59,933 nucleotides of DNA, taken from NCBI RefSeq assembly GCF_016907925.1, contig NZ_JAFBCZ010000018.1:64001-123933 (forward strand), in the 5' to 3' direction. The notes beneath the pieces were generated by a model, which saw nothing but the letters and a program-made list of their open reading frames with translations, did no database searches and had not been told where the DNA came from. Positions 17,446 through 59,933 of this stretch are shown here, in pieces. The DNA comes from Herpetosiphon giganteus. Its GTDB lineage: Bacteria; Chloroflexota; Chloroflexia; Chloroflexales; Herpetosiphonaceae. Made by a program: the position numbers and the translations under genes. How positions within the stretch are numbered: position 1 is the first letter of the stretch; every line of letters begins with the position of its first letter.

Positions 17446-17538
17446 CCCTAGCCCCTGAACCCTCTTAACTAAAGCCCAAAGCCTATAGCCTATAGCCACA
17501 TGGACTCTTCAGCCTTCATCCCTCATCATTCATAATTG

Positions 17539-33699: not shown

Positions 33700-33990
33700 T
33701 GATCGGGTAGCATTGCTACCCTTTTTTAATTTAATCCACGAAGGATACGAAGCTGAGAAACCGCGAAGGTCGAGAAATTTTCTCAGTCCCTCGTCCGTGC
33801 ATTTCATCCTTCATTCCGCATCCTTCATATTTTTGAAGCTCTACACCTCTGCGTTAAATGCGTACTCTATTTTGCTTTTTGACTTTTGATTTCTGCCTTT
33901 TCACTTTTAAAAAGGGATCAGGCTTGATGGAATCCATCCTCCAAAGCCTAATCCCTTTTGCTTTTTGATTTCTGACTTTTGACCTTTAAC
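33700..33990. repeat. Mosaic intergenic repeat block (ttcatccttcattccgcatccttcat; cttttgatttctg(c/a)cttttgac modules)
   Basis: ctttt-gac modules recur at 59721-59760; ttcatcc modules recur elsewhere. Confidence 0.6.
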
Positions 33991-35687: not shown

Positions 35688-36127
35688 CGCAGAGGCGCAG
35701 CGTGTTTTTTGCACGCGAAGCACCCAAAGTTTGGGAATTGGAACTCTAACAACAATCCAACAAACAAACATTAGGGGGTGCTGGGGGATGAAAACCCCCG
35801 GCGTTTCCCTCCGGCGGAGGGACGGAAGGGTGGCGAACGATGAAAGATCTAAGCATCCAGCACTTTGCGCACGGTTTGCGCTAAGGTTGCCAATGAAACC
35901 AGAATGTTGCAGAGGCGCAGCGTGTTTTTTGCGCGCGAAGCACCCAAAGTTTGGGAATTGGAACCCTAACAACAATCCAACAAACAAACATTAGGGGGTG
36001 CTGGGGGATGAAAACCCCCGGCGTTTCCCTCCGGCGGAGGGACGGAAGGGTGGCGAACGATGAAAGATCTAAGCATCCAGCACTTTGCGCACAGTTTGGG
36101 CCAAGGTTGCCAATGAAAACGGCTTGC
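35688..36127. repeat. Tandem direct duplication of a ~220-bp unit (copy A about 35688-35907, copy B about 35908-36127). Each copy embeds the 66-bp structured element. Copy B overlaps the 3' end of the hybrid HK gene; copy A carries a pseudo-3'-end fragment of it.
   Basis: The units differ at only a few positions. Both contain ...gatgaaagatctaagcatccagcactttgcgcac..., the reverse complement of the HK C-terminal codons plus stop. Confidence 0.85.
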
Positions 36128-38210
36128 TAAGCAACAACGGTTGCTGCGCAAATTGCTGTTGTTGGGCCAAACTATGTTCAGAATAGCCTGAAATAAACAA
36201 AATTTTGAGGCTTGGGTCACGCTCGCTCACCAGCTGGCCTAGCTCAAAACCACCCATTTGGGGCATAATCAGATCGGTAATCAACAGCTGAATTGTGCCT
36301 GTAGCGTGGGCCTGCAACAGATCTAGGGCAGCCGAACCATTAGCTGCTTCCAGCACCCGATAGCCCAAACCTTGCAGCATGCGCACCAAGACGGCGCGCA
36401 CTTGTGGCTCGTCCTCGCTGACCAAGATGGTTTCGTTGCCTCGAGGCAGATTTTGGCTAGCATTTGGCGACTCAATGGCAGGCGTTTGCTCCGAACGTGG
36501 CAAATAGATTTTGATTGTTGTGCCACGATCAACTTCGCTATACAAACTAATATGACCGCCATGTTGTTTGATAATGCCATAACTGGTTGCCAAGCCCAAA
36601 CCAGTGCCTTCGTGATCGCTTTTGGTGGTAAAAAATGGCTCAAAGGCGCGGCTTTGCACTGCTTGCGTCATCCCAACGCCGCTATCGCTTACCGCAAACA
36701 CCACATACCGACCAATCGGTACATCAACATGGCTACGCGCATAGGCTGCATCAACCACCAGATTCTGCGTTTCAACCAACAAATGCCCACCGTTGGGCAT
36801 CGCATCGCGAGCATTCACCACCAAATTTAAGAGCACTTGCTCAATTTGGCCTGCATCAGCCACAACTACATCAATAGCAGGATTAAGCACAGTTTTCCAG
36901 TGAATTGATTCAGGCAAGACGCGCTTAATTAATTTTTCCATAGCAATAATTAAATCGTTAAGATTAATAATTTTTGGCTGTAGCTGTTGCTTACGAGCAA
37001 ACGTTAATAATTGAGTTGTGAGTAATGCAGCGCGATTGGTTGCATGTTGAATTTCAGTTAATTCTTCGAGCACTGGCAAACCATGCTGAAAACTATCAAT
37101 CGCCAGCGTGGTATAGCCACTAATCGCCGTTAGCAAATTATTGAAATCGTGGGCCACACCACCAGCCAAGCGCCCAATACTTTCCATCTTTTGAGCCCGA
37201 ATTAATTGCATTTGCAATTGATTGCGATCAGTGCGATCTTCTGTATGCACCATAATTAAATCTGGCTCAATAAAAACATAGCTTACATATAAATCTCTGA
37301 ATTGCTCGCTAAATTTAAATTGATAGCGTAACTCTTGATGAATTGTACTTTTTGTCTGACAACAACGCTGAAAATGTTCGAGAATTTCCGGATCATGTTG
37401 ATAGACAAGTTTGGCTGATTGATTGACAAGTTTAGTAATTGTACCTTGGGTGATGGCTATAGCTGCATCGTTGTAGGTTTCGAGGATAAAATCACTATCA
37501 ACCCAACGCCATGTATAGGTTGGAATCGGAATGCCAGCATATTGGGCGCGAAATTGGTTTTCGCTAGCGCTCAATTGGGCTACAGCCAAACGCTGTAAAC
37601 TTGCCAAGCGATAGACTACGCCAGCAATCATAATCAAAAAGATCGACCAACCCACTAAGACCAACGAATAGCGTTCCGATTGGCGTTTAATCGCTATTTC
37701 CAAATCAAGATACAGCCGATTTTCCAACTGCTCTGCTTCTAACTCAAGTTGCGAGAAGGCAATACGCCGATCGATCGTGGCTTGAGCGTGATTTTGGGGG
37801 CGATTGAGATGCTGCAATAACAAGCCGCGAAAATTGGCTAAATCTTGGCGATATTGGTTGAGTGCTTGGGCTATGGGTGGGGCTGGCGGCAGCAATTGCT
37901 CAAACACGACAACCGGATTTTGGCCCTGCTGCCAATCATCAACCGCTAAAATTGCCCAATCAAGGTAAGCAATTGCATCTTGGGCCAACAAGGTTTGGTT
38001 GCCATTCAGCACTTGCTCGGCAATCAAATAGCCGCGTTGCATATTCAAGCGGGCTTGAGTCAGGCCGTTGAATGCAGTAATTTGGGTTTGAATCATTGCG
38101 CGCATTTGGGAATAATTGGCCTGCAACAAGCCAATTGAAACCAAGGCCACACTCAATAAGGCAATTAATGGGCGTAATTCTTTGCGCCGTAGCCAAGCCA
38201 AAGCCTTCAT
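36069..38210 (-). CDS. Hybrid sensor histidine kinase (TM/sensor region, PAS-like, HisKA, HATPase_c and a C-terminal REC domain)
   Basis: H-box HDFNNLLTAISGY and G-boxes DSGVGM and GTGLGL. C-terminal receiver (ILVSEDEP...LITDLIMPQMGG). Its ATG overlaps the TGA stop of the upstream SBP gene (ATGA). Confidence 0.85.
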   Translation of the reverse strand: MKALAWLRRKELRPLIALLSVALVSIGLLQANYSQMRAMIQTQITAFNGLTQARLNMQRGYLIAEQVLNGNQTLLAQDAIAYLDWAILAVDDWQQGQNPVVVFEQLLPPAPPIAQALNQYRQDLANFRGLLLQHLNRPQNHAQATIDRRIAFSQLELEAEQLENRLYLDLEIAIKRQSERYSLVLVGWSIFLIMIAGVVYRLASLQRLAVAQLSASENQFRAQYAGIPIPTYTWRWVDSDFILETYNDAAIAITQGTITKLVNQSAKLVYQHDPEILEHFQRCCQTKSTIHQELRYQFKFSEQFRDLYVSYVFIEPDLIMVHTEDRTDRNQLQMQLIRAQKMESIGRLAGGVAHDFNNLLTAISGYTTLAIDSFQHGLPVLEELTEIQHATNRAALLTTQLLTFARKQQLQPKIINLNDLIIAMEKLIKRVLPESIHWKTVLNPAIDVVVADAGQIEQVLLNLVVNARDAMPNGGHLLVETQNLVVDAAYARSHVDVPIGRYVVFAVSDSGVGMTQAVQSRAFEPFFTTKSDHEGTGLGLATSYGIIKQHGGHISLYSEVDRGTTIKIYLPRSEQTPAIESPNASQNLPRGNETILVSEDEPQVRAVLVRMLQGLGYRVLEAANGSAALDLLQAHATGTIQLLITDLIMPQMGGFELGQLVSERDPSLKILFISGYSEHSLAQQQQFAQQPLLLSKPFSLATLAQTVRKVLDA

Positions 38211-39082
38211 GAGCCATGCTCGCACGCCTGGAGAATACTCGCAGTTGAACGATTGGGCAATTGTTCGCGCGCAAAACCAAACGGCGCAATCAAGCCATAA
38301 TGTTCGTCGCTGCCAATAAATCCAAGCAACTGCTGATCGATTGCGCTGCGCAAATGGGTATCAGCAGGGCGCATCGCAAACGCCCCATAGCCAATACTCA
38401 GATTACCATTGATGATTGGCGGCACAAATGGCTGAGCGCGTTCAACCTGATCCGGCGCTTGCTGAACTAAGAGATCGACGCTAATGTCGGTTAAGGCTAA
38501 GCCATCGGCCCGCCCTGCGAGCACTGCTGCCAAGCCAGTTTGCACATCGGGCACAAATAATAATTGCTGAGCATCAATCCCAAGTATTTGGGCGATTGTT
38601 GCTTCCTCAGCGCCGCGCATCACCGCCAACCGCCGATCAGGTCGCCGAAAATCGCTAAAACTCTGAATATGCAGGGGATTGCCAAACTGAACCAAGATCG
38701 CGGGGCTCAGGGCAAAAGTTGGTTGACTAAAAGCCAACAGCTGGGCACGCTCGCAGGTAATAAACATGCCGCTAGCAATCAGATCAAACTTGCCAGCCTG
38801 CAAGCCAGGAATTAAATCGGCCCACTCGGTCTGAACCCATTCAAGCTGGGGGATGCCTAAGCGCTGCATAACCCATGTCATGACCACCGCCGCCTCGCCG
38901 TGCATCTCGCCGCTGGCACTACGATAAGCAAACGGTGCTTCGGGAGCATAGCCAATCCGGATCATGCCAGTGCGTTGGGCACGTTCTAAGGTTGTTTCCA
39001 CCGGAGTTGTCAGCCACCAGATTAAAGCAGTGGTAACAATAATCAGCGTTAAACCAGCAAAGCTCCACCATGCTCGACGCAT
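38207..39082 (-). CDS. Family-3 periplasmic solute-binding protein (SBP_bac_3), likely a sensor partner of the hybrid HK
   Basis: Start moved to the MRRAWW methionine followed by a TM segment. Amino-acid-binding SBP-like sequence. Translationally coupled to the HK. Confidence 0.65.
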   Translation of the reverse strand: MRRAWWSFAGLTLIIVTTALIWWLTTPVETTLERAQRTGMIRIGYAPEAPFAYRSASGEMHGEAAVVMTWVMQRLGIPQLEWVQTEWADLIPGLQAGKFDLIASGMFITCERAQLLAFSQPTFALSPAILVQFGNPLHIQSFSDFRRPDRRLAVMRGAEEATIAQILGIDAQQLLFVPDVQTGLAAVLAGRADGLALTDISVDLLVQQAPDQVERAQPFVPPIINGNLSIGYGAFAMRPADTHLRSAIDQQLLGFIGSDEHYGLIAPFGFAREQLPNRSTASILQACEHGS

Positions 39083-41164: not shown

Positions 41165-41423
41165 CCTTATGTAGTAAGGATGAAGGATGAGGGATGAATT
41201 ATGAACATCCCCATCGCTCACACCTTGGTTAATCTTGTAGAAGGGTGAAGGATGAGGGATGAATTATGAACATCCGCACCATTCACACCTTAGGTTTGTA
41301 ATGTAAGTTCTGCGCTTGATGTCTAAATTACATATTCAATAATGAAGAATGAAATAACCTTTCTAAATTCATAATTCGTCTATTTCATCCTTCATCCTTC
41401 ATCCTTCATCCTTCATAATTTCG
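41165..41423. repeat. dnaK-dnaJ spacer filled with GGATGAA-family repeats: two ~50-bp direct repeats (gaaggatgagggatgaattatgaacatcc...cacacctt) and (ttcatcc)x4-ttcataatt
   Basis: R1 at about 41178-41230, R2 at about 41244-41295, heptamer run at 41385-41420. R1/R2 and the run are mutually inverted, so long hairpins are possible. Confidence 0.7.
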
Positions 41424-45527: not shown

Positions 45528-48500
45528 ATGCGTTCGATGCGTATGCTGCGTTTGCTAGCAGCATTAATTGTGGTGAGCATGCTTCCATTGAGCCGAAGCA
45601 ACGCCCAAACTCCAACCACCAATGCCCCAATCAATCGCTTGCTCAACCAAGGAGCCAATGTTGCTCGCCACAGCCAAACAGGCTATGTGCGTTGGATTGG
45701 CGCGGCAGCAGGCACAACCCTCGATCAGCCAAGCGGCCTGAATCGGGCAGATACGGTTAATGTTGCCAACGCCTATGTGGCCGAATATGGTAGCTTGTTT
45801 GGCTTAGCCCAAGCCAGCGATGCAGCAATTGCAAAAACGACCACCACCCAAGATGGTCGCCAAGTTGTGCGTTATCAACAACGCTACCAAGGCGTGCCAG
45901 TAGTAGCTGGTGAATTGCAAGTGCAATTGAACCAAGCAGGCGAATTGCTCAGTATGAATGGCGAAGTGTTGCCAAATCTCAATCTGAGCACCAGCGCCAA
46001 ACTGAGCCAAGCCAACGCTAGCAGCATTGCCCAAAACTATGTTGCCGCCAAATACGATGCCAACACTGCCAACTTGAATGTGAGCAACAACGAGCTTTCA
46101 ATTTACAACCCAGCCTTGTTGGGTGGCACTGGTGTTCAAAAAAATAGCTTGGTTTGGTTAGTCACGATTGAATCAACCAGCAGCGAGCCAATTCGCGAGT
46201 ATGTGTTTGTCAATGCCCAGTCGGGCGAGATTAGCTTAGCCTTCAACCAAATTGGCTATGCCAAAAATCGCTTCGTCTGCGACGACGACAATGTGATTGA
46301 TACCGACAACACTCCCAATAATAACTGTGATGAAGCCAGCGAATATGTGCGCACCGAAGGCTCAGCCCCAAGTGGCGATGCAGATATCGATGCCGCCTAC
46401 GATTATTCGGGCGACACCTACGACTTCTACAACTTGTTCTTTGGCCGCAACAGCATCGACAACAACGGCATGAGCTTGATTTCATTGGTCAAGCATTGCC
46501 CACCTGGTGCTGGTTGCCCTTACCAAAACGCCTTCTGGAATGGTCGCCAAATGACCTATGGTGAAGGGTTTGCTGCTGCCGACGACGTGGTTGCCCACGA
46601 ATTGTCGCACGGCGTAACCGAATATACCTCAAACCTGTTCTACTACTTCCAATCAGGCGCAATCAACGAAGCCATGTCGGATATTTTCGGCGAATTCATG
46701 GATCAAACCAACGGTAGCGCCGACGATGATACAAGCACTCGTTGGATTATGGGCGAAGATTTGGGCGGATTGCGTGATATGCAAGATCCACCGCAAGGCG
46801 GCCAGCCTGATAGCATGCTCAGCCCATTGTATGTGCTTGACGCAAGCTTGGCTGACAACGGTGGCGTGCACACCAACAGCGGGATTGCCAACAAGGCTGC
46901 CTATCTGTTGACCGATGGCGACAGCTTCAACGGCCAAACGATCAACTCGATTGGCATCACCAAAACTGCCCATTTATTCTATGAAACCCAAATTAGCTCG
47001 TTGACTTCGGGCAGCGACTATGCTGATTTAGCGTCGGCTTTGCGCCAAGCGTGTAGCAGCCTAACTGGCAGCCATGGGATTACGGCAGCTGATTGTGCTG
47101 AAGTTAACAAAACCATTTTGGCCACCGAAATGGATTTGCAGCCAACCAACGCACCAGCTCCTGACATCAAGGCCTGTAGCCCTGGCCAAACTCAGGTTAA
47201 TGTTTTCGCCGATGATTTTGAAGCCTTGCCAAACACCAAATGGACTGCAAGCGCCTTGAGCGGTAGCAACGAAAGCTGGACGACCAATCCTGCTCAAATC
47301 GTTGGCGCGTATGCAACCAGCGGCAATGGTTCGGCCACCAACATCAATGGCGTGTATGGTGTGAATCAAGATGTTGAAGAATCGGCCTTCAGCCAAAATG
47401 CAGCTGTAACGGTTCCAGCCAATGGCTTTGCCTACTTCCGCCATGCCTACGATTTCTACTCACCAATCGATGCGGGCGTGGTTGAATATAGCACCAACAA
47501 CGGCAACAGCTGGCAATCGGCAGCAAACTTGTTTAGCTACAACGGGCCAAACAACATTGCTGCAGGCGGCGAATTTGCAGGCGAGCAAGCCTATGTTGGC
47601 AACAGCAATGGCTACACTGCTAGCCGCTTGAATCTCTCAAGCTTGGCTGGTCAATCAGTTCGCTTCCGCTTCAAAGTGGCGCTTGGCGACAACCCAACTC
47701 CAAGCCGCTCGGTTACCTGGTCGATTGACGATTTCGCAATCTACAGCTGTAGCGGCGCAGTAACGCCAGCAGCACCAAGCCTGTTCCTCACCAGCGATGT
47801 CTTGGCCCAACAAGGCAAGATTAGCAGTGCTGTGATTGGGACGGCCTCTGATGATATTGATTTGGCTGGTTCGTTGGCCGTGAGCGTTGCTGGCGCGCCA
47901 GCAGGCTTGAACGTCAACGTCGCCAACCAAGCAGGCATCTTGAAAGCGACGGTCAATTGTGCTTGTGACACCGAAGTTGGCAGCTACCCAATTACGGTAA
48001 CCGTCCGCGACAGCGGCAACCGCACCGCTAGCCAAGTATTCAATGTTGAAGTTGAAACCGCTGGCCAAAGCGTGATTGACGGTGGCTTTGAGCTCGGCGA
48101 GGGCTGGGAAGCCTTCTCAAGCTCGTTTGGCGACGTTTCACCGCCATTGTGTTTCTTGCCTGGCTGCGCTGGCGAGCCACGCACTGGCAATAGCTGGTTG
48201 CGCTTTGGCGCACGCGCTGGCAGCACCGAAACCGCGTTTGCAGAGCAAACCTTCACCTCAACTGCGAGCGATGCAACGCTTGAATTCTATCTCTCGATCT
48301 ATGCCCATAACGGGCGTGGCACGCAAGATTACGTCAAGCTTAGCATTGATGGCGAAGAAGTGTTCCGCGTCACCGATGCCAACACCGAATACGACAATGG
48401 CTATGCCAAAGTGACGATTCCATTGACCGACCTTGAAGCAGGCGCACATGTCTTGCGCTTCGATTCAGTCAATAATTCGACTACACGCAACATTCGCTTT

Positions 48501-48581
48501 AGCATTGATGACATCAGTTTGATTACTGAAACCAATCAATGCCGTGGCGTTGGCGTGTATCTGCCTGCCGTCACCAAATAA
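45528..48581 (+). CDS. Large secreted M4 (thermolysin-family) zinc metalloprotease with propeptide and ~500-aa C-terminal beta-sandwich/Ig-like extensions
   Basis: Signal peptide. HEXXH VVAHELSHGVTEY and the thermolysin motif GAINEAMSDIFGE. C-terminal domain ...VRFRFKV...WSIDDFAIY. Ends GVGVYLPAVTK. Confidence 0.85.
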   Translation: MRSMRMLRLLAALIVVSMLPLSRSNAQTPTTNAPINRLLNQGANVARHSQTGYVRWIGAAAGTTLDQPSGLNRADTVNVANAYVAEYGSLFGLAQASDAAIAKTTTTQDGRQVVRYQQRYQGVPVVAGELQVQLNQAGELLSMNGEVLPNLNLSTSAKLSQANASSIAQNYVAAKYDANTANLNVSNNELSIYNPALLGGTGVQKNSLVWLVTIESTSSEPIREYVFVNAQSGEISLAFNQIGYAKNRFVCDDDNVIDTDNTPNNNCDEASEYVRTEGSAPSGDADIDAAYDYSGDTYDFYNLFFGRNSIDNNGMSLISLVKHCPPGAGCPYQNAFWNGRQMTYGEGFAAADDVVAHELSHGVTEYTSNLFYYFQSGAINEAMSDIFGEFMDQTNGSADDDTSTRWIMGEDLGGLRDMQDPPQGGQPDSMLSPLYVLDASLADNGGVHTNSGIANKAAYLLTDGDSFNGQTINSIGITKTAHLFYETQISSLTSGSDYADLASALRQACSSLTGSHGITAADCAEVNKTILATEMDLQPTNAPAPDIKACSPGQTQVNVFADDFEALPNTKWTASALSGSNESWTTNPAQIVGAYATSGNGSATNINGVYGVNQDVEESAFSQNAAVTVPANGFAYFRHAYDFYSPIDAGVVEYSTNNGNSWQSAANLFSYNGPNNIAAGGEFAGEQAYVGNSNGYTASRLNLSSLAGQSVRFRFKVALGDNPTPSRSVTWSIDDFAIYSCSGAVTPAAPSLFLTSDVLAQQGKISSAVIGTASDDIDLAGSLAVSVAGAPAGLNVNVANQAGILKATVNCACDTEVGSYPITVTVRDSGNRTASQVFNVEVETAGQSVIDGGFELGEGWEAFSSSFGDVSPPLCFLPGCAGEPRTGNSWLRFGARAGSTETAFAEQTFTSTASDATLEFYLSIYAHNGRGTQDYVKLSIDGEEVFRVTDANTEYDNGYAKVTIPLTDLEAGAHVLRFDSVNNSTTRNIRFSIDDISLITETNQCRGVGVYLPAVTK

Positions 48582-51055: not shown

Positions 51056-53440
51056 CTATGGTTGCGGATAGACATACTCAACACTAAATGATCGAAATGG
51101 AGTCGTCGCATCAAAGCCATTAAATTGGATTAACGGCAACCAGTGTTGATTAATTCGCTCCAAAATATACACATCGTCGGGCATCACCACCATGACACGC
51201 TGGCCAAACCAATCACTCTTGGTTAGATTGAACCAATCAGCAAGCACCAGTGAATGGCCGATTTGGCTTGTGCGGCTCAATGTCAGCAAGCGTGAGTTAA
51301 TCGTCTGGCTTTGGGCAAGCAAATAATATTGACTATCGCCCGACCACGTACCTTGAAAGCCTATCTGCAGCGGCTGGCGCATTAACTCCAAACCAGTTGC
51401 ACTATCAAACATCAACAAGGTGCCATAGCGCCAAGGATACGTCCGCTCAAACAGCATAATCGTCTGGCCATCGGGCGCGATCTCAATTTCAAGGGCCTTG
51501 CGATCATCGGTTGCCATGAGCAATTGGGTTAGTTGGCTGACGATTGAATAGCGCTGAAGTTGATCTTGGAAATCTTGATAGACGACAATTGGCGAGCCAG
51601 CCGTATACCAAAGCTCCTTCGCCTGATCAGGATTGAGCAGATTTGTGCCTTGGCTTGGGTCATTGGCCGAGCTTTGCCAGACCAAATATTCAAACGATTG
51701 CGCCGATTCAAGCCACGTTCGACCAACAATTGTTAGTTGCTGCCCATCCCAGTAGATGGGGATTAATGTGGTTGCGGCGGGCAGTTCGGCAAAAATCCTG
51801 GGTTGGCCAGTTTGCAGATCAACCGCAAGGCAACGGTTGACTCGTGAATTGGATTGCGCATTGAAATGATAGCTATAGCACACCGCAATGCTCCGATTAT
51901 CGGGCGCACTGACTCCCGCAAAATCATCCCAACCGCCAATTTCAGCGGGATCGAGATCAAGGGTAAGGGTTGTTTGGCTGGTTGGATCAAAAATCTGCCA
52001 GCTTGCGTCTGTCCGATCAATCAGCAATGGCGCTGCATTCCAACGGGCAATACGATAAAAACTTTCTTCAGACTCCACGCGACGGCTTTCGTTAGGCCAA
52101 AGCTGGAGGGTCTGCGATTCATGCCCAACTAAAGCCAAAGGCTGAGCGGCCAATGCCACAGGCGCAAGCGGAGCATTTGCCGGAAACGGAACAGTCAAAA
52201 TTTCAAGCTGTGGGTTAGCAACCGAGGGCAGTGGCTGAAACTTGGGAATTAATCCAAACCCAAAAATTGTATGCTCAAGCTCAATCGTTTGAGTTTGGTT
52301 GGTTGGGAGATCAATCGTTTCCAAGACACCAGTGCGATTGAGCAGAATGAGGCGTTGGTCATCGAGAAAGCGAATCAACTGACTCACATCATAGCTACTG
52401 GTATGAGTTCGTTCATAGACTAATTGACGTTGCCACAAACCAAGCCCATTGCCAGCGCGATCATAGGCGAAAATTTGCTGAACTAAATTTGTGTCGAAGT
52501 TTTCGAAACGATTAACAACCGCAACCACATAGCTGAGATCGGGCGAAACCAACAGATGATCAATGCGTCCAGCACGTGGTAAATGTGAAAATTCAGTTTG
52601 GTTGAGCGTTTGACGCTTGAGCAAATCGATTTCGTTGACCATGCCTGAACCAAAGACCAAGGCCCGCTGCCCATCGGCTGCCACCGCAGCGAACTCAAGC
52701 TGGCTAAACCAGGGTTCTGCAAAGCCTTCACTGGCCGCATCAAAGCCAAACAATTGACCGTCGGCCAAAAGCCATGGACCAGCGGCGGTTGGCAAGACTT
52801 TGGGTTGTTGGCGCAACAGCGGTGCTTGATATTGGCGCAATTCTAGGCCACTGCGGCTATCCAGCCCACGCAAACGCACCGTCGCAGGCTGAAATGGGTC
52901 ATTGGTGGCTTGCTTTTCGATTAACCAAACCACATCCATAAATGGATCGTTGACCACATCCAAAATTGTGGTTTCGCGTTGATCTGTTTGGGTAAACAGT
53001 GGCAATTGCCACAAACGCCGATCATCGCGCAACGAACGGGCTTCGAGCCAGGCATAATTGCGACTCAACAGCACATTATGGTCGCGGTCAATTGTAATTA
53101 TCGGCTCTCGATCGATGAGCTTGCCTCGCGGTTGAGGCTGATTAACGCCATCCCAAAAATGCGACTCAGCCTCATCTCCCATCAACAGCAACTGTTGCTC
53201 GCCCAGATCAAGCGTTTTGCTGGCGGGCAGCGGCTGATTGGGTTGGGGCTGAGTTGCAATACTCGGGGTTGGAACTGCTGCAACCACCACCGTCGCAGTT
53301 GGCACAGGTGCTGGGGGCGCTGGCGTTTGGGCTGCCAAAATCATGGCAATTAATAAACCAATCCCAGCCATGACTGGTAGAATTTGCCAACGACGGCCTG
53401 AACCGCCAATCTTGGCGCGCTGCGAATGCTCTTCCATCAT
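51056..53440 (-). CDS. Membrane-anchored beta-propeller-repeat protein, paralog family member 2 (ends YVYPQP)
   Basis: Start set to the MMEEHSQ methionine after RBS gagagg. N-terminal RRWQILPVMAGIGLLIAMILA TM segment; P/T-rich linker; PD40-like segments (IAPDGQTIMLF). Confidence 0.6.
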   Translation of the reverse strand: MMEEHSQRAKIGGSGRRWQILPVMAGIGLLIAMILAAQTPAPPAPVPTATVVVAAVPTPSIATQPQPNQPLPASKTLDLGEQQLLLMGDEAESHFWDGVNQPQPRGKLIDREPIITIDRDHNVLLSRNYAWLEARSLRDDRRLWQLPLFTQTDQRETTILDVVNDPFMDVVWLIEKQATNDPFQPATVRLRGLDSRSGLELRQYQAPLLRQQPKVLPTAAGPWLLADGQLFGFDAASEGFAEPWFSQLEFAAVAADGQRALVFGSGMVNEIDLLKRQTLNQTEFSHLPRAGRIDHLLVSPDLSYVVAVVNRFENFDTNLVQQIFAYDRAGNGLGLWQRQLVYERTHTSSYDVSQLIRFLDDQRLILLNRTGVLETIDLPTNQTQTIELEHTIFGFGLIPKFQPLPSVANPQLEILTVPFPANAPLAPVALAAQPLALVGHESQTLQLWPNESRRVESEESFYRIARWNAAPLLIDRTDASWQIFDPTSQTTLTLDLDPAEIGGWDDFAGVSAPDNRSIAVCYSYHFNAQSNSRVNRCLAVDLQTGQPRIFAELPAATTLIPIYWDGQQLTIVGRTWLESAQSFEYLVWQSSANDPSQGTNLLNPDQAKELWYTAGSPIVVYQDFQDQLQRYSIVSQLTQLLMATDDRKALEIEIAPDGQTIMLFERTYPWRYGTLLMFDSATGLELMRQPLQIGFQGTWSGDSQYYLLAQSQTINSRLLTLSRTSQIGHSLVLADWFNLTKSDWFGQRVMVVMPDDVYILERINQHWLPLIQFNGFDATTPFRSFSVEYVYPQP

Positions 53441-53520
53441 CAATACCTCTCGTAGGGTTGCTCTCATTGGAGCATACTATCGAACCTTGCCCTAATCATA
53501 GCAAACTATGCCAAGTTGGC

Positions 53521-53862
53521 TTAGCGAGGATACACATAACGCACCCTGCTTCTAGGCGTGGCTTCGAGTTGGTGTTGCCGAAGAAGCACTAGCGCTGTGC
53601 GAGCTTGAGCACTTGGCGTGGCATGAGGAGTTGTGCTTGGAAATAGAACAATCGTGGCGGTCGGGCTGGGTTTAATCGTGGGCGAGGCAGCAAGCGCCAC
53701 GGCTGTTGGCTGGTTGGTAGGGCTAGGTTAGGCTTGATCAACAGGGCTTAAACCAAACAGCATACGCACAACTAAGCCAAGCCCAATTACTGTGCAACTC
53801 AGCAGCAAAACCCGCCAATGTCGCCCTAGATTGCGAGCCTTGGCGGCAGAACGATCATCCAT
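53521..53862 (-). pseudogene. Decayed paralog remnant: N-terminal anchor (MDDRSAAKARNLGRHWRVLLLSCTVIGLGLVV...), in-frame TAA, linker (PTAVALAASPTIKPSPTATIVLFP) joined directly to a C-terminal ...RVRYVYPR stop. The ~2.3-kb ectodomain is deleted.
   Basis: Single reading frame with an internal TAA at 53728-53730. Matches N-terminus, linker and C-terminus of the 54024 and 56948 genes (compare DRNWWRVLPVLGALGLLGLMLVL, TAVALLGSATPSIQPSPTLIAAPFP, YYVYPR). Confidence 0.6.
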
Positions 53863-54023
53863 CAGCAAACCCTCTCACTCGTGCTTGACCATGGGGAATA
53901 GTACGATCAAGCCTAGCGCACACGTCATGGGTTGCACAATGATAGCAAGCTGATGCCAAGCTGAGTCAAGGCTGGGGATCATAACCTGTCATCCGATCCC
54001 CAACCCCCGATCCCTATATCCAA

Positions 54024-56708
54024 TTAGCGTGGATACACATAATAAATCTCTTCGGAAAGGCCAATATCCTCGCTAATCCGCCAATCAATCTGTAATGCTT
54101 GGCCATCCCAGCTGAGTTGCTCAAGGCTTGGTTGCCACAAATGCTGGGCCAGCAGCGTTTTGCCATCGTTATACAAGGCTACTGGTTTTTTGAGCGGATC
54201 ACGCTTTGTACTAAATACGAGGCTTGGTTGTTGGGCGTTATAAACGCCAAGCCGTTGTTCGCGGCTAATATTCCCAAAATCCAACAACAACCAACGGCCA
54301 TCAGGCGACCATAAAAATGGGCTTTCGCTACTCTCGGAATACGCGCCTGAATCTAGTTGATACCAGCGTTGCTGCTCAAGCTGATATAAGGCCGGAGCAC
54401 TACTGCCATCAGCTGTTGGCAACATAAAAGCAAAGCTATTGCCTTCGGGCGAAAAACTCAGCGCATCGGCGGCTAATGGCATCAATGGCAGGGCAATATC
54501 GTGGCTTTGCTGCTTAACCAAATCGAGCACTCGCAACAGCATCGTTTTATTAGCAGCAGCCAGCGGGTAGATTAGCCAGCGTTGATTGGGCGCAACATAC
54601 ACCCGGGCCAGAATCGCATTGCTCACATCAGGAATGTTGGCCACAATCGCGGGAATTTCAGCGATTTTTTCTGCTTGGAATGGCGGCCCGAGCTGCACCC
54701 GCCAGAGCAGTTGAGGGTTTTTGCTGGTTTGCAGAAAATAGATGCTATCGCCTTGCCAAGCAAGCGGCTTAGCCCATTTCAATTCTGGCCAGGTGCGCGA
54801 ATCGGCGAGCACATTCCATTCGCCAGTTTGGGTATTGATTTGCAGCAGTTGACTTGCCCCAATAAATTGATCGTTGCTACGCATATCTTGGCCTACCACC
54901 ACCACCATGCTTTGATAATTTGGCGCAAGCATGCTGTCGATAAAACTTTCGTCGTTCAGAATCTTTTCAAATTCCCATTCGACAGTTTGCTGGCTCACCG
55001 GATCAAGCAATTGCCATGTTTTTGATTTGGGGTGTTGCAGCACTAAGGGCGGCTGATTATAGCGCTCAAACAGCCTAGAACCTTCCTCAACCAATACTTC
55101 AAGCGTTTGATCAGATGATAGCCGTTGCAAGCGTAAATCTAGGCCAAGTCGATCGCCAAAAATTGCCACTGGCTGAATGCTTGGGGGTTGAATCGTTGGC
55201 AAATTCGGTTGATCATACATTGGCACCATGGTTGGTAACGGCGTAACCGCCGCTTGATATTCGCTATTCGCCAGATTAATCGCCGGGCCAGCGATCTCAC
55301 CCAGCCATGCAATGCCATGATCGCCCCAAACTGAAGCTGGAACAACCTCGGTCAAGCTATTGGTTGCGACATTCCAACGGCTAACCAACTGCTGCTCACG
55401 CTCCCAATCGAAGCTCGAGATGAACCATTGATCGGCAGTTATGCCAGGGTAGATTGAGCTAAGGCTGTCAACTTCGCTGATCCCAAGCAACTGCCCAGTT
55501 TGCAGGTTGTAGACCGAGCTGAAATACCGATCGTCAACGCGTGGATCATCACTGCTGACGATGCTCTCAACCACTAAGGTTTGTTGGTTATGCGAGAACG
55601 TGGCGCTAAGCAGATTGCCTTGAAACGGCGGATTTAATGCTACTTTTTGCTCATTACCACTCGCCCAATCGATCAGGCTCAACGTGGTTGGTGCCCGAAA
55701 CACCCCCAAGAATGGTTGCGTGCCATCACCAACAATCTCATTCTTATTAAGCGCACCAACATCACGTTTTGTCATGGTCATGGGGTCAAATTGAAACAGT
55801 TTATCCTCTTCGATGCCCCAAATCTTGCCATCGCTGGTCATGATATGGCTATGGCCTGGGAGTGGTAATGAGCTGGGGCCATCAAGCAGCTGACCATCCT
55901 GAATCGCGAGATGGCTCCACGTCCAACGTGCATCATCGCTACGTTGATCAAGCACATAGACCCCGCTGCCAGCTTGATCAACTTTTAGCCTACTTTTACG
56001 ATCATACTGGTTTTTGGGCAATAATTGCATACTCCAACGCGGCTGACCCGTTTTGAGGTCAATTGCAACTAAGTTTTGGTTACGCGGCAGCAGCAAGGTT
56101 TGTTGCTCGGGCAACAGCGCCATAAAGTTTGCTGCATACTCATCGACGGTCGCAATTGGCACAAAGCCTGTAGCCTCAACGCGTACCAATTGATATTGCT
56201 CTATATCAGCACGCACAATCATTGCATAGCTATGGATTTGGTCAACAGGTGTAGGTTGAGCCGTTAACGTTGGCAGCGTTGTAGGTGTTTGAAGCCCAAG
56301 CGTTGCTGCGGGAATCGTCGTTGTTGGTTGTTGAATCGCGGGCACAATTGTTGGCAACAACTCGGCATCATTCAGATCCCTGGTTGGAACGCTGGTGAAT
56401 GCTGGCTCAATCGTCGCTAACCGAAACTCGCCTGGGTCTGCTGGCAAAACTTGGATTGGCGGCGCTGATTGCTCTGGTTGCCAGGCAGGAAACGGCGCGG
56501 CAATCAAGGTTGGGCTAGGCTGAATACTTGGCGTAGCTGAACCAAGCAAGGCCACCGCAGTGGAGTCAACATCCGCTTCATCAAGCCTACTTGGCATGAA
56601 TGTCAGCACCAGCATCAAGCCAAGTAGGCCCAACGCCCCAAGCACGGGCAGCACCCGCCACCAATTGCGATCCTTGCTCAGTTTCACCCGTTCTCGTTGT
56701 GGTTGCAT
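54024..56708 (-). CDS. Membrane-anchored beta-propeller-repeat protein, paralog 3 (TolB/PD40-like repeats; ends IYYVYPR)
   Basis: ATG for MQPQRERV follows RBS gaggag; the ORF track starts at an upstream TTG. TM segment WWRVLPVLGALGLLGLMLVL; P/T linker; motifs AIDLKTGQPRW, LSFSPEGNSF and WSPDGRWLLLD. Confidence 0.65.
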   Translation of the reverse strand: MQPQRERVKLSKDRNWWRVLPVLGALGLLGLMLVLTFMPSRLDEADVDSTAVALLGSATPSIQPSPTLIAAPFPAWQPEQSAPPIQVLPADPGEFRLATIEPAFTSVPTRDLNDAELLPTIVPAIQQPTTTIPAATLGLQTPTTLPTLTAQPTPVDQIHSYAMIVRADIEQYQLVRVEATGFVPIATVDEYAANFMALLPEQQTLLLPRNQNLVAIDLKTGQPRWSMQLLPKNQYDRKSRLKVDQAGSGVYVLDQRSDDARWTWSHLAIQDGQLLDGPSSLPLPGHSHIMTSDGKIWGIEEDKLFQFDPMTMTKRDVGALNKNEIVGDGTQPFLGVFRAPTTLSLIDWASGNEQKVALNPPFQGNLLSATFSHNQQTLVVESIVSSDDPRVDDRYFSSVYNLQTGQLLGISEVDSLSSIYPGITADQWFISSFDWEREQQLVSRWNVATNSLTEVVPASVWGDHGIAWLGEIAGPAINLANSEYQAAVTPLPTMVPMYDQPNLPTIQPPSIQPVAIFGDRLGLDLRLQRLSSDQTLEVLVEEGSRLFERYNQPPLVLQHPKSKTWQLLDPVSQQTVEWEFEKILNDESFIDSMLAPNYQSMVVVVGQDMRSNDQFIGASQLLQINTQTGEWNVLADSRTWPELKWAKPLAWQGDSIYFLQTSKNPQLLWRVQLGPPFQAEKIAEIPAIVANIPDVSNAILARVYVAPNQRWLIYPLAAANKTMLLRVLDLVKQQSHDIALPLMPLAADALSFSPEGNSFAFMLPTADGSSAPALYQLEQQRWYQLDSGAYSESSESPFLWSPDGRWLLLDFGNISREQRLGVYNAQQPSLVFSTKRDPLKKPVALYNDGKTLLAQHLWQPSLEQLSWDGQALQIDWRISEDIGLSEEIYYVYPR

Positions 56709-56947
56709 CGATATTGCTCCTCTATTCAATCATGAGTGGCTATCGGCACTAGGCTATAGGCTATTGGCTATGGGCTATTGGCGTTGGGAACCGCGAAGCG
56801 CACGAAGGACGCGAAGGTTCGTTTTTAGCCACAAATTGCCCGAAGCATAGAGTGTCGCCACAGCTTCATACTCCCAATAGCCTTCAGCCTAGAGCCGATA
56901 GCCTAACTCCTCCCCCCTGATCCCCGATCCCCGATCCCTACGTACAA

Positions 56948-59611
56948 TCAACGCGGATACAGATAGCGAATCGTCTCAAGCCTTATTTCCATTGGGGCCA
57001 TACGCCACTCAGTTTGCCATTCTTGCTCGCGCCATGTCAACTGGGTAAATGCCGGATTCCAAGATTGGCCAGTTAGAAGCGTTTTGCCATCGTTATCCAA
57101 GGCTAGTAATCGATGCTCGGTCGGCTCAATTTGCGAACGCAAAGCGAGGCTTGGTTGCTGCGTATTATAGATGCTCAGGCGGCGGTTAAGCCCAACATAG
57201 CCAAAATCGACCGCCAGCCACTTGCCATCAGGCGACCACAAAAACTGGTCTTGGCTATTGGCATAAAAGCCTGCATCAAGCTGATACCAACGTTGCTGCG
57301 CAAATTCATACAAGCCAACATAGTGATCATGTTTGGGGTTCAAGCTTGGCAGGATTAACCCAAAACGCTCGCCATCGGGCGCAAAGCTCAAGCTCACCAG
57401 ATCGATCAATGGCAGCGTCAATTCATGGCTTTGTTGCTCGACCAAATCGAGCACCTTCACCAACATAGTTTCCTTATTCGCCGTCGCCAGCGGATAGAGT
57501 AACCAGCGTTGGTTGGGTGAAATAACGATTCTGGCAAAGATTGGATAACTTGAAACTGCTGGATCACTGGTAACAACGCTGGGAATTTCAGCCAGTTTTG
57601 TGGCTTGGAACGGTGGGCCTACTTGCACGCGCCAAAGCACCTGCGGGTTCGGCCCAGCTTGCAGAAAATAAGCGCTATCGCCGTGTAATGCAATTGGTTT
57701 AGCCCATTGCAGCTCAGGCCATGTCCATGAATCAGCGAGAATATTCCATGTGCCAGTTTGCAGATTAATCTGAACTAACTGACTTGAGCCGGTAAATTGA
57801 TCGCTGCGCTGTAAATCTTGGCCCACAATCACCAGCAAGCTGCGATAATCGGGTGCTAGCAAGGGGTCAAAATCCAATTCGCTAGTACTAAGAATTTTTT
57901 CAAATTGCCATTCCACAGTTTGTTGGGTGTTTAGGTCGAGCATTTGCCACTGGCGTGCTTGGGGGCGTTGCAGCACTAATGGAGTTTGGTTATAGCGTGG
58001 AAACGTGTGCACCACAAAATCAGCAAGCAACTCCGTGTGCAAGTCGCTATCGATCCGCTGTATGCCACCGTTAGCAGCAACCAAGGCCACGGGCTTGGTC
58101 GTAGCAGGCAAGATCGTTGGCAATGGTGTTTGTTCATAGATCGAAACAGGGCTAGGCAAGGGCGTAACTGCTGCTTGAAATTCACTTGCAAGCGGTTCAA
58201 TTGGCGCACCGCTAACCTCGCCAAGCCATAGAATGCCATTATCGCCAATGATCGTTGGCACAACTACTTGGGTCAACGTATTGGTTGCCATGTTCCAAAG
58301 GCTAAGATCGCGCTTGGAACTCACATAATCAGGCATGATTACTAACCATTGATCGGCACTATTGGTTGGATAGAGGCTGCTAAACATATCATGCTTGATC
58401 GTGGCAATTAATCGGCCAGTTTGGAGATCATAGGCTAAATAGTCATCATTTGCGCTGAAGGAACTGGTAGGCGGAGCCGCACTATCAACAACCAAGATCG
58501 TTTGATCGTTGGATAAAAAGCCTGCTCTAGGCATCCACTCAAATGGGCTTGCGTCTAATTCAACTGAACGCTCGTCGCCAGTTGCCCAATTGATCAGGCT
58601 CAATGTTGTTGGGCTACGAAATACGCCCAACAACGGTTGGCGGCCATCGCCCAAAATTGTCGCGTTGGAGAGTGAACCAAATTCTTGGTAGGCTTGGGTT
58701 GCAGGGTCATAGTGAAACAGGGTTTCCGGCGTGGAAAACCAAATGTGGCCAGTGCTCGTGAGCAACAGTTGATCAACTGCTGGCAATTTAAAATGTTGGG
58801 CTGGTTGCTGCAAAATTCCATCATTCAACCCAAGGTGACTTAAACGCCAGGTCATCGTTGCTTGATTAATTTCAATCAGATAGACCCCAGTGCCAGCCTG
58901 ATCAAGCGTCAAGTGACTTGTATAATCAAGCGCCGTTTTGGGCAACAAACCATAGCGCCATAGTTCGCGACTAGTCGCCAAATCAAGCGCAACCAATTGC
59001 TGATTGCGCGGAATCAAGACACGTTGTTGCGCAGGCAACAAGGTCATAAAGCGCTCAGCATAGGCATCAACGGCAGCAATCGAAACCAAATTATTGGAGT
59101 CGATTCGCACGAGGTTATGGCCCGCAGGGCTATGCACAATCGCATAGCGCTGGCTTTGGGTAGCTGGCGTTGGGCGCGCAGTTGGCGCTGGCAGCGGCGT
59201 AACGGTTGAGGCTGGTAGATTGGTTGGTGCTGGCTCAATCACCGGCACAATCGTGGGTAAGGGCATCGGATCGCCTGGCAATTTAGGAGGAACGGTTGTC
59301 AGCACAAGTTCTGGTTGCACCGTCACCACGCGAATCTCGCCCAGTTTATCGGGCAGCAGCCGAATTGGCGGTGGCTCCGCTGGTCGGGTAGGAAATGGCG
59401 CGGCAATCAAGGTTGGGCTAGGCTGAATACTTGGCGTAGCTGAACCAAGCAAGGCCACCGCAGTGGGGTCAACATCCGCTTCATCAAGCCTACTTGGGAT
59501 GAATGTCAGCACCAGCATCAAGCCAAGTAGGCCCAACGCCCCAAGCACGGGCAACACCCGCCACCAATTACGATCGTTGCCAAGTTTGACTCGCTCCCGT
59601 TGTGGTTGCAT
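56948..59611 (-). CDS. Membrane-anchored beta-propeller-repeat protein, paralog 4 (ends IRYLYPR). The first 81 residues and the leader are nearly identical to paralog 3.
   Basis: Same architecture: ALDLATSRELW, LSFAPDGERFG and WSPDGKWLAVD. The 5' ~250 nt of the CDS and ~120 nt upstream are nearly identical to 56460-56850. Confidence 0.65.
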   Translation of the reverse strand: MQPQRERVKLGNDRNWWRVLPVLGALGLLGLMLVLTFIPSRLDEADVDPTAVALLGSATPSIQPSPTLIAAPFPTRPAEPPPIRLLPDKLGEIRVVTVQPELVLTTVPPKLPGDPMPLPTIVPVIEPAPTNLPASTVTPLPAPTARPTPATQSQRYAIVHSPAGHNLVRIDSNNLVSIAAVDAYAERFMTLLPAQQRVLIPRNQQLVALDLATSRELWRYGLLPKTALDYTSHLTLDQAGTGVYLIEINQATMTWRLSHLGLNDGILQQPAQHFKLPAVDQLLLTSTGHIWFSTPETLFHYDPATQAYQEFGSLSNATILGDGRQPLLGVFRSPTTLSLINWATGDERSVELDASPFEWMPRAGFLSNDQTILVVDSAAPPTSSFSANDDYLAYDLQTGRLIATIKHDMFSSLYPTNSADQWLVIMPDYVSSKRDLSLWNMATNTLTQVVVPTIIGDNGILWLGEVSGAPIEPLASEFQAAVTPLPSPVSIYEQTPLPTILPATTKPVALVAANGGIQRIDSDLHTELLADFVVHTFPRYNQTPLVLQRPQARQWQMLDLNTQQTVEWQFEKILSTSELDFDPLLAPDYRSLLVIVGQDLQRSDQFTGSSQLVQINLQTGTWNILADSWTWPELQWAKPIALHGDSAYFLQAGPNPQVLWRVQVGPPFQATKLAEIPSVVTSDPAVSSYPIFARIVISPNQRWLLYPLATANKETMLVKVLDLVEQQSHELTLPLIDLVSLSFAPDGERFGLILPSLNPKHDHYVGLYEFAQQRWYQLDAGFYANSQDQFLWSPDGKWLAVDFGYVGLNRRLSIYNTQQPSLALRSQIEPTEHRLLALDNDGKTLLTGQSWNPAFTQLTWREQEWQTEWRMAPMEIRLETIRYLYPR

Positions 59612-59632
59612 CGATATTGCTCCTCTATTCAA

Positions 59633-59760
59633 TCATGAGTGGCTATCGGCACTAGGCTATTGGATGTTGGCTATTGGCTTTTGGCGTTGGGAACCGCGAA
59701 GCGCACGAAGGACGCGAAGATCACGAGGGCTTTGGACTTCTGACTTCTGACTTTTGATGT
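59633..59760. repeat. Conserved leader/repeat block upstream of paralog 4 (tggctatcggcactaggctattgg..., cgcgaagcgcacgaaggacgcgaag, ctgacttctgacttttgat)
   Basis: Nearly identical block at 56730-56830 upstream of paralog 3. Contains TTCGTG/CACGAA and ctttt-gac modules. Confidence 0.6.
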
Positions 59761-59802
59761 TCTATGCTCTCTGTATACTGATTCATTGCGTTAACAACGA
59801 TT

Positions 59803-59853
59803 CACCCCTCACCCCCTAGCCCACTCACCCGCCCACGGGTTTAAGGGCGGACA
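59803..59853. repeat. REP-like element (cacccctcaccccctagcc...cccgcccacgggtttaagggcgg)
   Basis: Same CCTCACCCC family with a GC hairpin. Confidence 0.45.
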
Positions 59854-59933
59854 GGGACGCTCAACCAGGGGATACAGCACGACCTCGGTTTGGTATACTG
59901 GATGGTGACGAAACCAAACCCAGAGCAAAACCG

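Follow-up and report, generated by a model that had tools for sequence, protein, structure and literature searches.

The hmw1 and hmw2 genes of Haemophilus influenzae have near-identical 5′ regions, with 7-bp tandem repeats in their promoters upstream of the start codon; the units are perfect copies, and expression is set by how many there are. Duplicated prokaryotic genes are also known to undergo concerted evolution, tufA/tufB being an example. The babA, babB and babC genes of Helicobacter pylori encode surface-protein paralogs that are homologous at the N-terminus and variable in the middle; 5′ conversion, at about 60-240 bp from the start codon, transfers 5′ features from one copy to another and gives rise to chimeric genes (PMC4552749). 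According to the available portion of one account, repeated gene conversion in prokaryotes makes paralogs of the same genome more alike than orthologs (PMC6053082); conversion of release-factor genes is presented as a case of such concerted evolution in what was available of another (PMC4530459). The accessible parts of two further reports describe patchy, short-tract conversion between paralogs in repeated families of Mycobacterium tuberculosis, where it is seen as mosaic identity (PMC13061034, PMC12046097).

Our analysis concerns two tandem paralogs of a Herpetosiphon array, paralog 3 (W3) and paralog 4 (W4), within a window of 59,933 nt (the whole stretch of DNA that was analyzed; Table 1). 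Their 5′ ends form a direct repeat at a constant offset of 2903 nt, and the 330-nt alignment of its two copies has no gaps and 17 mismatches. After 108 nt of leader, the repeat encodes the cytoplasmic tail, the membrane helix and the initial third of the disordered linker that follows. In the 60 nt on either side, at the same offset, 48/60 and 41/60 positions differ, and over the remainder of the two genes identity falls to 59.6% for DNA and 49% for protein. The initial annotation had described near-identical 5′ ends and leaders attached to divergent bodies, and this description stands, as do the four residue differences that it listed (S/G, K/N, M/I and S/P). Its limits for the block (56460-56850 and 59363-59750) enclose a real feature and overshoot it by about 30 nt at each end. 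The 81 shared residues and approximately 120 nt of shared leader that it reported are likewise present in shorter form, and the TTG that it took as the start lies seven codons too early. The likely start codon is the ATG at 56708 (W3) and 59611 (W4), judging from the GAGGAG that precedes it, in a region conserved in all family members, and from the residues MQP, with which all 13 homologs first retrieved and three added later begin. With this start, the shared coding part amounts to 74 codons and the shared leader to 108 nt. The antisense ORFs across the two 5′ ends, already suspected to be artifacts, can be dismissed as genes, as their stop positions are not kept among homologs.

Table 1. Features of the paralog 3 and paralog 4 genes and their leaders (positions in the window)
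Feature	Position	Strand	Details
Paralog 3 (W3), 894 aa	54024..56708	-	ORF; ATG start with GAGGAG
Paralog 4 (W4), 887 aa	56948..59611	-	ORF; architecture as W3
Homogenized block, copy A	56487..56816	-	paralog 3 leader -108..-1 and codons 1-74
Homogenized block, copy B	59390..59719	-	paralog 4 leader -108..-1 and codons 1-74
Unconverted patch, copy A	56667..56694	-	codons 5-14; 8/28 nt differ from copy B
Unconverted patch, copy B	59570..59597	-	paralog-4 states GAG, GTC, CTT GGC, as in NSE202 N4
Shine-Dalgarno GAGGAG, paralog 3	56717..56722	-	8 nt before ATG
Shine-Dalgarno equivalent, paralog 4	59620-59625	-	counterpart of 56717..56722
Membrane-helix coding sequence (LPVLGALGLLGLMLVLT), paralog 3	56601..56651	-	AlphaFold2 model and sequence
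Membrane-helix coding stretch, paralog 4	59504-59554	-	counterpart of 56601..56651
Imperfect heptamer array (NATAGCC x6), paralog 3 leader	56738..56782	-	TRF period 7
Heptamer array, paralog 4 leader	59641..59685	-	5 positions differ from copy A
Three 9-nt units (CTTCGCGTC CTTCGTGCG CTTCGCGGT), upstream edge of block A	56790..56816	-	
Three 9-nt units, upstream edge of block B	59693..59719	-	identical to copy A
Distal inverted heptamer array (GGCTATN units), upstream of paralog 3	56874..56903	-	outside block

The W3 protein consists of a short cytoplasmic tail, a membrane helix, a disordered Pro/Thr-rich linker of about 120 residues and two beta-propeller-like domains. None of the four paralogs matched a Pfam family above threshold, with just faint hints of PQQ_2 and PD40, and the fold was therefore taken from an AlphaFold2 model of W3 and a Foldseek search with it. 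The model places a helix at residues 20-36, a low-confidence stretch at 37-156 and all-beta domains at 158-473 and 514-892; the Foldseek matches were tandem WD/beta-propeller proteins. W3 orthologs in Herpetosiphon spp. are 94, 88 and 81% identical, and the N-terminal 74 residues, many of them invariant, are the best-conserved part of the family. A secreted M4 protease is encoded next to the propeller-protein genes.

Uniform divergence along the gene pair, which had been named at the outset as speaking against exchange, is not seen; identity collapses sharply past codon 74. The initial annotation had proposed a breakpoint near codon 81; a maximum chi-square scan placed a sharp boundary at nt 222, the end of codon 74, with a chi2 of 107; none of 1000 permutations gave a value above 24.4. 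An indel separates the paralogs immediately past this codon. Within the block, mismatches are clustered (positions of copy A): there are none in 56778-56816 (0/39) or 56695-56757 (0/63), 5/20 in the intervening part of the heptamer array (56758-56777), 8/28 in codons 5-14 (56667-56694) and 4/180 in the rest of the coding part (56487-56666). At least one of the five differences in the copy B array (AAAAGCC) matches paralog 4 of Herpetosiphon sp. NSE202, the closest comparison genome.

The array is collinear with that of NSE202 across 6 kb at 92.4% identity, and a four-sequence test was made with W3, W4 and their NSE202 orthologs, N3 and N4. The W4 body is 95% identical in DNA to N4 versus 59% to W3. 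Over codons 1-74 the order is different: W3 and W4 are 95% identical, W3 and N3 90%, and W4 and N4 82%. Ten sites in codons 21-70 group W3 with W4 and none group the orthologs; from codon 75 onward, 799 sites support orthology versus three. The grouping thus switches from paralogs together to orthologs together at codon 74, which places the event after the split from the NSE202 lineage. Silent sites agree: W3 and W4 are identical at 35/37 four-fold sites in codons 13-74, at 78/179 in codons 75-894 and at 68/152 in the body proper (codons 161-894). The tract itself differs by 4/180, compared with 5% between orthologous bodies. At about 30 sites of the block N4 is the odd one out, with W4, W3 and N3 alike. 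The patch at codons 5-14 behaves differently, with 1/5 four-fold sites identical and four orthology-type sites versus no conversion-type site; in its core (codons 6-11), copy A retains the paralog-3 orthologous state.

Comparable exchanges occur elsewhere in the genus. In the Ll3/Ll5 pair of H. llansteffanensis, codons 13-125 contain 27 conversion-type sites versus one orthology-type site; the leaders of this pair differ, and exchange went in both directions. The corresponding counts for the M3/M4 pair of a metagenome-assembled genome are 20 and eight, and genes of H. aurantiacus and H. gulosus have a leader and about 85 codons in common with bodies that are 40% identical. By these comparisons, independent 5′-end exchanges with other end points have evidently taken place in H. 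llansteffanensis and the metagenome-assembled genome. This recurrence indicates concerted evolution of the N-terminal module within genomes. In codons 13-74, pooled four-fold identity is 73% for same-genome paralogs (44% in the body) and 56% for orthologs (67% in the body), a pattern that, on the evidence of these silent sites, bespeaks concerted evolution and not selection on regulatory sequence. The array also varies in gene number between genomes, and family members outside it exist (L006). The source genome lacks about 6 kb that NSE202 has; a relic gene remains at 53521-53868.

Taken together, these observations make it very probable that the block arose by ectopic (interlocus) gene conversion between tandem paralogs lying 2.9 kb apart in direct orientation. 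The W4 leader and codons ~13-74 would have been overwritten with paralog-3-type sequence after the split from the NSE202 lineage, paralog 3 being a candidate rather than a proven donor. Gene order, gene bodies and the sequence upstream of -108 have, on this comparison, clearly remained orthologous, and codons 6-11 evidently escaped conversion, so that the tract is interrupted. The earlier suggestion of gene conversion or recombination affecting the leader, the anchor and the beginning of the linker is thereby borne out by the silent sites, the NSE202 quartet and the codon-74 breakpoint. A single unequal crossover, joining the 5′ end of paralog 3 to the body of paralog 4 in a hybrid gene, would invoke a process that clearly operates in this array, as the variable gene number, the missing 6 kb and the relic attest, and genes that pair the leader of one group with the body of another do exist. 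It is nevertheless very improbable here. Upstream of -108, the paralog 4 sequence is unrelated to that of paralog 3 and resembles the leader of the first-position gene of H. geysericola, which means that both ends of the tract return to native sequence; moreover, codons 6-11 inside the tract retain paralog-4 states, and the 4-3 order and spacing match those of NSE202. Extremely improbable, in our judgment, is a history without recombination, in which purifying selection at the nucleotide level kept a regulatory or RNA element and a constrained peptide. The strong conservation of the N-terminal 74 residues, and of about 35 nt before the ATG in all members, would be expected from it, but it is contradicted by the four-sequence test and by silent sites that are less alike between orthologs in the N-terminal region than in the body and more alike there between paralogs of one genome. 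The NSE202 paralogs, identical at 18/29 four-fold sites in this region, are not homogenized. Heptamer arrays that differ in length between orthologs, together with the Rfam and folding results given below, also speak against such an element.

A third sequence, either a family member elsewhere in the genome or DNA from another strain, might have overwritten both paralogs. This is unlikely, although it has some points in its favor. The coding tract is mostly of paralog 3 type, yet at 10 sites W3 and W4 share states absent from N3 and N4, about six of which are unique to this genome among all 13 sequences; W3 and N3 diverge by 10% in the block versus 5% in the body, and family members outside the array exist. 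Against these points, most diagnostic sites are simply of paralog 3 type, the unique states are absent from all sampled family members, and small numbers combined with faster evolution of the linker could produce a similar pattern. Given the states confined to W3 and W4 and the doubled divergence, the source may have been an unsampled third copy, or the sequence may have evolved fast before it was copied. For the leader, the evidence on direction is ambiguous, since parts of the W4 leader resemble the H. geysericola first-position leader. An assembly artifact, in which the assembler merged reads of one 5′ end into the other, has a next to negligible probability: nothing specific suggests it, except that short-read assembly can go wrong at repeats of about 300 nt, and it is opposed by 17 differences that are structured and match NSE202 orthologous states, and by equivalent mosaics in separately assembled genomes of other species, one of them complete.

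The initial annotation also saw a shared regulatory module in the leader, a view that our results do not bear out. Across the family, leader conservation is confined to the ribosome-binding region, the ~35 nt that directly precede the ATG; further upstream, repeat number and content differ even between W3 and N3. The heptamer units are imperfect (78% matches by TRF), number six in the W3/W4 genome versus three in NSE202, and are found in many intergenic regions of the window. The leader heptamers are apparently a genome-wide intergenic feature that varies between orthologs. Phase-variable tandem repeats would be perfect, which these units are not; the count difference noted lies between species. 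A conserved leader RNA of a described family (such as a riboswitch or attenuator) found no support either: Rfam gave no match at E <= 1 in 53400-59933 and, across the whole window, none that reached gathering score. Folded alone, the block leader was no more stable than shuffled sequences (z = +1.08). The whole paralog 3 intergenic region reached z = -4.56 because its two inverted heptamer arrays pair; the promoter-proximal 30 nt of the array (56738-56767) and the distal array form an inverted repeat of 30 nt, 90% complementary, with a 106-nt spacer. Neither leader contained a sigma-70-like promoter or an intrinsic terminator, the totals being at or below shuffled expectation. Our literature search on heptamer repeats in Herpetosiphon or Chloroflexi found nothing.

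In the 322 nt between paralog 4 and the end of the window there is no counterpart of the distal inverted array, and no 3′ end of a PIG-L-like gene or family member. A PIG-L-like gene precedes the array in other genomes. Paralog 4 may be the first gene of its array, as its upstream similarity to H. geysericola, the sole ground for this placement, would suggest.

Gene conversion would probably have produced this tract as follows. Protein-level constraint on the tail, the membrane helix and the AVALLGS..TPS and APFP motifs could preserve enough 5′ identity for homologous recombination, and bodies of ~60% identity would block heteroduplex extension, so that the tract stops where paralog similarity collapses. 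The internal patch could result from patchy mismatch repair of one long heteroduplex or from two separate events. The outcome would be one ribosome-binding region, tail, anchor and proximal linker common to both genes. Both the recombination machinery and any effect on fitness are inferences, and nothing indicates selection for a shared 5′ end. A bolder reading, which we regard as quite unlikely, is that the 5′ module is actively targeted for exchange. Hairpins of inverted heptamers would stall replication or be cut, starting recombination at gene starts, and the array would shuffle a common 'address label' over beta-propeller bodies while expanding and contracting fast; heptamer arrays would then correspond, in Chloroflexi, to the STRR repeats of cyanobacteria and contribute to genome plasticity.

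Ectopic conversion is a common process in bacterial gene families, and the present case is clear but ordinary. It offers a clean, datable example of short-tract, patchy conversion at a 5′ end that recurs across the genus, in association with array members being gained and lost. For annotation, the promoters or leaders of W3 and W4 should not be counted as independently conserved, and trees built from the N-terminus of this family mislead. The family is uncharacterized and confined to Herpetosiphon, a predatory filamentous bacterium; bodies that turn over fast behind a homogenized anchor may interest researchers of the Herpetosiphon cell surface.

Among the described systems, the bab genes resemble the Herpetosiphon pair in being surface-protein paralogs with 5′-region conversion and chimeras. 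They differ in that bab loci are dispersed and share a homologous 3′ region too, whereas the Herpetosiphon genes are adjacent and share the 5′ end alone; bab conversion is also documented to contribute to phase and antigenic variation in a host, and the Herpetosiphon coding tract is without a phase-variable repeat. The hmw1/hmw2 loci are likewise paralogous surface-protein loci having near-identical 5′ regions with heptanucleotide repeats. In contrast to theirs, the Herpetosiphon units are imperfect and scattered as arrays over many intergenic regions. As far as the available parts of the M. tuberculosis reports go, patchy conversion is the common element, and organism and protein families differ. 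With the prokaryotic cases of concerted evolution, our locus has in common that paralogs within a genome are more alike than orthologs. Those cases are mostly whole, highly conserved housekeeping genes, whereas in Herpetosiphon only a 330-nt 5′ module is involved, in fast-evolving, lineage-restricted surface proteins and with end points that vary by genome.

Four mutually distant paralogous genes lie on the minus strand in the final 12 kb of the window. Repeat finding and pairwise alignment revealed one outstanding block shared by two of them, paralog 3 (W3) and paralog 4 (W4). By exact count the block is 330 nt long (56487-56816 and 59390-59719), with 17 mismatches, no gaps and a constant offset of 2903 nt, at which the 60 nt flanking it on each side are unrelated. 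Its leader part is 108 nt long and its coding part spans codons 1-74; outside the block, roughly 800 aligned codons show 59.6% DNA and 49% protein identity. The 5′ identity described in the initial annotation was therefore confirmed, while its outermost coordinates and the assigned start codon have to be corrected. The ORF listing begins both genes at a TTG seven codons 5′ of an ATG. However, GAGGAG precedes that ATG by 8 nt in both, the MQP encoded there is the start in 13/13 homologues first retrieved and in three added later, and database entries likewise start there. A breakpoint had been suspected near codon 81. A maximum chi-square scan located a sharp change where codon 74 ends, at coding nt 222 (chi2 107, versus a maximum of 24.4 among 1000 permutations). 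Immediately 3′ of this codon is a 6-nt indel where paralog similarity collapses, marking the downstream tract edge. The upstream edge is at -108; 5′ of it, W3 is similar to its orthologue in Herpetosiphon sp. NSE202, and W4 to the leader that precedes the first array gene in H. geysericola. Identity is uneven along the block (see table).

Coordinates of features in the window (block segments refer to the W3 copy)
Feature	Position	Strand	Remarks
Paralog 3 (W3)	54024-56708	-	One of the two upstream array genes
Paralog 4 (W4)	56948-59611	-	Other of the two upstream array genes
Relic of fifth array member	53521-53868	-	
Block segment	56778-56816		39 nt, no mismatch
Block segment	56758-56777		5 mismatches in 20 nt; within heptamer array
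Block segment	56695-56757		63 nt, no mismatch; array end through ribosome-binding site to codon 5
Block segment	56667-56694		8 mismatches in 28 nt; codons 5-14
Block segment	56487-56666		4 mismatches in 180 nt
NATAGCC-type arrays elsewhere	17469-17498; 18299-18316; 30087-30117		
Further heptanucleotide tandem arrays	29886-29916; 33803-33992; 59735-59757		
Inverted heptamer repeat pair	41176-41205 / 41384-41413		
Inverted heptamer repeat pair	56738-56767 / 56874-56903		W3 proximal array and inverted array
Antisense ORFs	56560-56850; 59463-59750		
M4 metalloprotease gene	45528-48581	+	1017 aa
Tandem 220-nt duplicate	35689-36118		97% identity
G/C-rich palindromic element	~59805-59860		~95 nt 5′ of block; related to the element in the NSE202 paralog 4 leader

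Since protein constraint cannot hold silent sites identical, the four-fold degenerate sites decide the question in favour of recombination over protein-level selection. W3 and W4 agree at 35 of 37 such sites in codons 13-74, at 1/5 in codons 1-12 and at 78/179 in codons 75-894 (68/152 in the body proper, codons 161-894); the NSE202 paralogues, which lack homogenisation, agree at 18/29. Alternatively, the segment might be maintained by selection at the nucleotide level because it contains a regulatory or structural element. Pooled silent-site identity in codons 13-74 is 73% for same-genome paralogues (body 44%), 55% for paralogues across genomes (body 42%) and 56% for orthologues (body 67%). 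Orthologues therefore resemble one another less here than elsewhere in the gene, which is the opposite of what such selection predicts. The pooled pattern is the one that repeated conversion would give.

A protein search assigned the window to Herpetosiphon. Orthologous arrays from a genome scan were compared in H. sp. NSE202, H. geysericola, H. llansteffanensis, H. aurantiacus and a MAG, with H. gulosus and a second llansteffanensis-like genome added later. The closest relative is NSE202: 6 kb of its array align collinearly with the window at 92.4%, and its gene bodies share 95% identity with the orthologues in the window. A four-sequence test was performed on informative sites in an alignment of W3, W4 and their NSE202 orthologues, N3 and N4. 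Sites grouping orthologues outnumbered those grouping paralogues by 4 to 0 in codons 6-11 and by 799 to 3 from codon 75 onward, whereas in codons 21-70 ten sites grouped W3 with W4 and none grouped orthologues. Together with the silent sites and the sharp limit at codon 74, this supports the earlier proposal of recent conversion or recombination at the 5′ end. At about 30 more block sites N4 is the sole deviant, so W4 has paralog-3-type sequence there; in the coding tract, paralog 3 probably served as the main source and paralog 4 as the recipient. The direction of transfer in the leader is ambiguous. Because the NSE202 paralogues are not homogenised, the event took place in the window lineage after its split from NSE202, and a tract divergence of 4/180, against 5% for orthologous bodies, would place it roughly midway along that lineage. 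Ten tract sites are common to W3 and W4 and differ from both N3 and N4, about six of them being unique among all sampled family members, and W3 and N3 diverge by 10% in the block versus 5% in the body. These observations would fit a third, unsampled copy as donor, which is possible; it is also possible that the segment changed faster before being copied.

The tract is not continuous, as codons 6-11 of W4 retain N4 states (GAG, GTC, CTT GGC), as does one position of its heptamer patch (AAAAGCC). Either one heteroduplex was repaired patchwise or more than one event took place. A single unequal crossover could also be proposed to have generated the pattern; however, native sequence resumes at both tract ends and the internal patch survives, and this explanation therefore fails.

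As the other genomes show, 5′-end exchange is a habit of the family. Orthologous groups are clear from the gene bodies, but not from the N-terminal 74 codons. In H. llansteffanensis CA052B, two adjacent array genes (locus L005, 3390-8893) have bodies 65% identical in DNA and different leaders, yet their proteins are identical for about 128 residues and they cluster with each other across codons 13-125 (27 sites of conversion type versus 1). The protein alignment reveals a mosaic in the shared segment, with residues 67-80 of one group's type and 85-128 of the other's; exchange therefore ran in both directions. The MAG pair has genome-specific motifs in common. The first genes after a PIG-L-like gene in H. 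aurantiacus DSM 785 (L004, 10001-12676) and H. gulosus (L007, 10001-12472) agree in their leader and their initial ~85 codons, but have bodies from different family groups (40% identity). The second llansteffanensis-like genome (L008, 13021-15717) is without one array member, and its paralog-3-type gene bears the leader that in CA052B precedes the missing member's counterpart, which suggests deletion by a crossover in the 5′ block. The window itself is without ~6 kb found in NSE202 (L001, 13109-19146). It holds a relic of a fifth member, the 'MDDRS...' paralogue (483-888 aa in other genomes), consisting of a 46-codon N-terminus, a frameshift and 59 codons to the family C-terminal ...VRYVYPR. 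Tail-to-tail with the array, 3′ ends facing, is a gene for a secreted thermolysin-type (M4) metalloprotease with a propeptide and Ig-like domains, a neighbour that H. llansteffanensis and the MAG also have.

A shared regulatory module had also been suggested, but the repeats show no sign of being a dedicated control element of W3 and W4, although they may conceivably act as one, and copying explains the identity of the two leaders. Family-wide conservation covers only ~35 nt before the ATG, Rfam matched no family, no sigma-70-like promoter was found in either leader, and the block leader folds no more stably than shuffles. W3 and W4 have six NATAGCC units, against three in the NSE202 orthologue. 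Period-7 arrays are the sole short-period arrays enriched in the window, almost all outside ORFs. At least two intergenic regions contain an array together with its reverse complement, making up a 30-nt, 90%-complementary inverted repeat whose arms are 100-180 nt apart. The inverted partner near W3 is not part of the block, and no such arm occurs in the 322 nt available 5′ of W4. The arrays resemble cyanobacterial STRR repeats; we found no paper on such arrays in Herpetosiphon. The antisense ORFs are by-products, as previously suspected: they share third codon positions with the real genes, and in homologues the frame is broken at varying places. Two other repeats were noted. A G/C-rich palindromic element (…CCCTCACCCCCAGCCCCTCTC…GAGGGGGCTAGGGGGTGAGGGG…) within the NSE202 paralog 4 leader (L001, 6973-7080), with a relative in the window, looks like a dispersed REP-like intergenic repeat. 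The tandem 220-nt unit spans the 3′ end of ORF 36069-38225 (-) and sequence 3′ of it, and had no Rfam match.

An AlphaFold2 model from 19 family sequences (mean pLDDT 72) predicts an unstructured 16-residue tail, a helix (20-36), a low-confidence region (37-156) and two all-beta domains (158-473 and 514-892). Foldseek matched it to tandem WD/beta-propeller proteins; Pfam gave no match above threshold. The block is thus predicted to encode the tail and the membrane anchor, together with the linker's first third; it stops within the linker and not on a domain boundary. The H. llansteffanensis tract has a different end point in the same linker. End points that vary in unconstrained sequence fit better with a mechanical limit, loss of homology, than with a selected module boundary. 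Invariant residues are present in the family N-terminal region. From established knowledge of homologous recombination, we predict that constraint acting on the tail, the helix and a small number of motifs in the linker preserves runs of identity at the 5′ ends, which would permit strand invasion between direct repeats during repair or replication, while heteroduplex would be blocked from entering the ~60%-identical bodies. Each conversion would rebuild identity and ease the next, and the same homology could be used in unequal crossovers deleting or duplicating array members.

In conclusion, the W3/W4 block is a clear, well-resolved case in which a known process acts on an uncharacterised gene family confined to one genus; the case is unsurprising, but useful as an example and in annotation. 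Conversion-driven concerted evolution is well described in prokaryotes (PMC6053082). The closest documented parallel is the bab adhesin family of H. pylori, whose genes combine an N-terminal homology region with a variable middle, and in which 5′ gene conversion, ~60-240 bp from the start codon, generates chimeras of the adhesin genes (PMC4552749).
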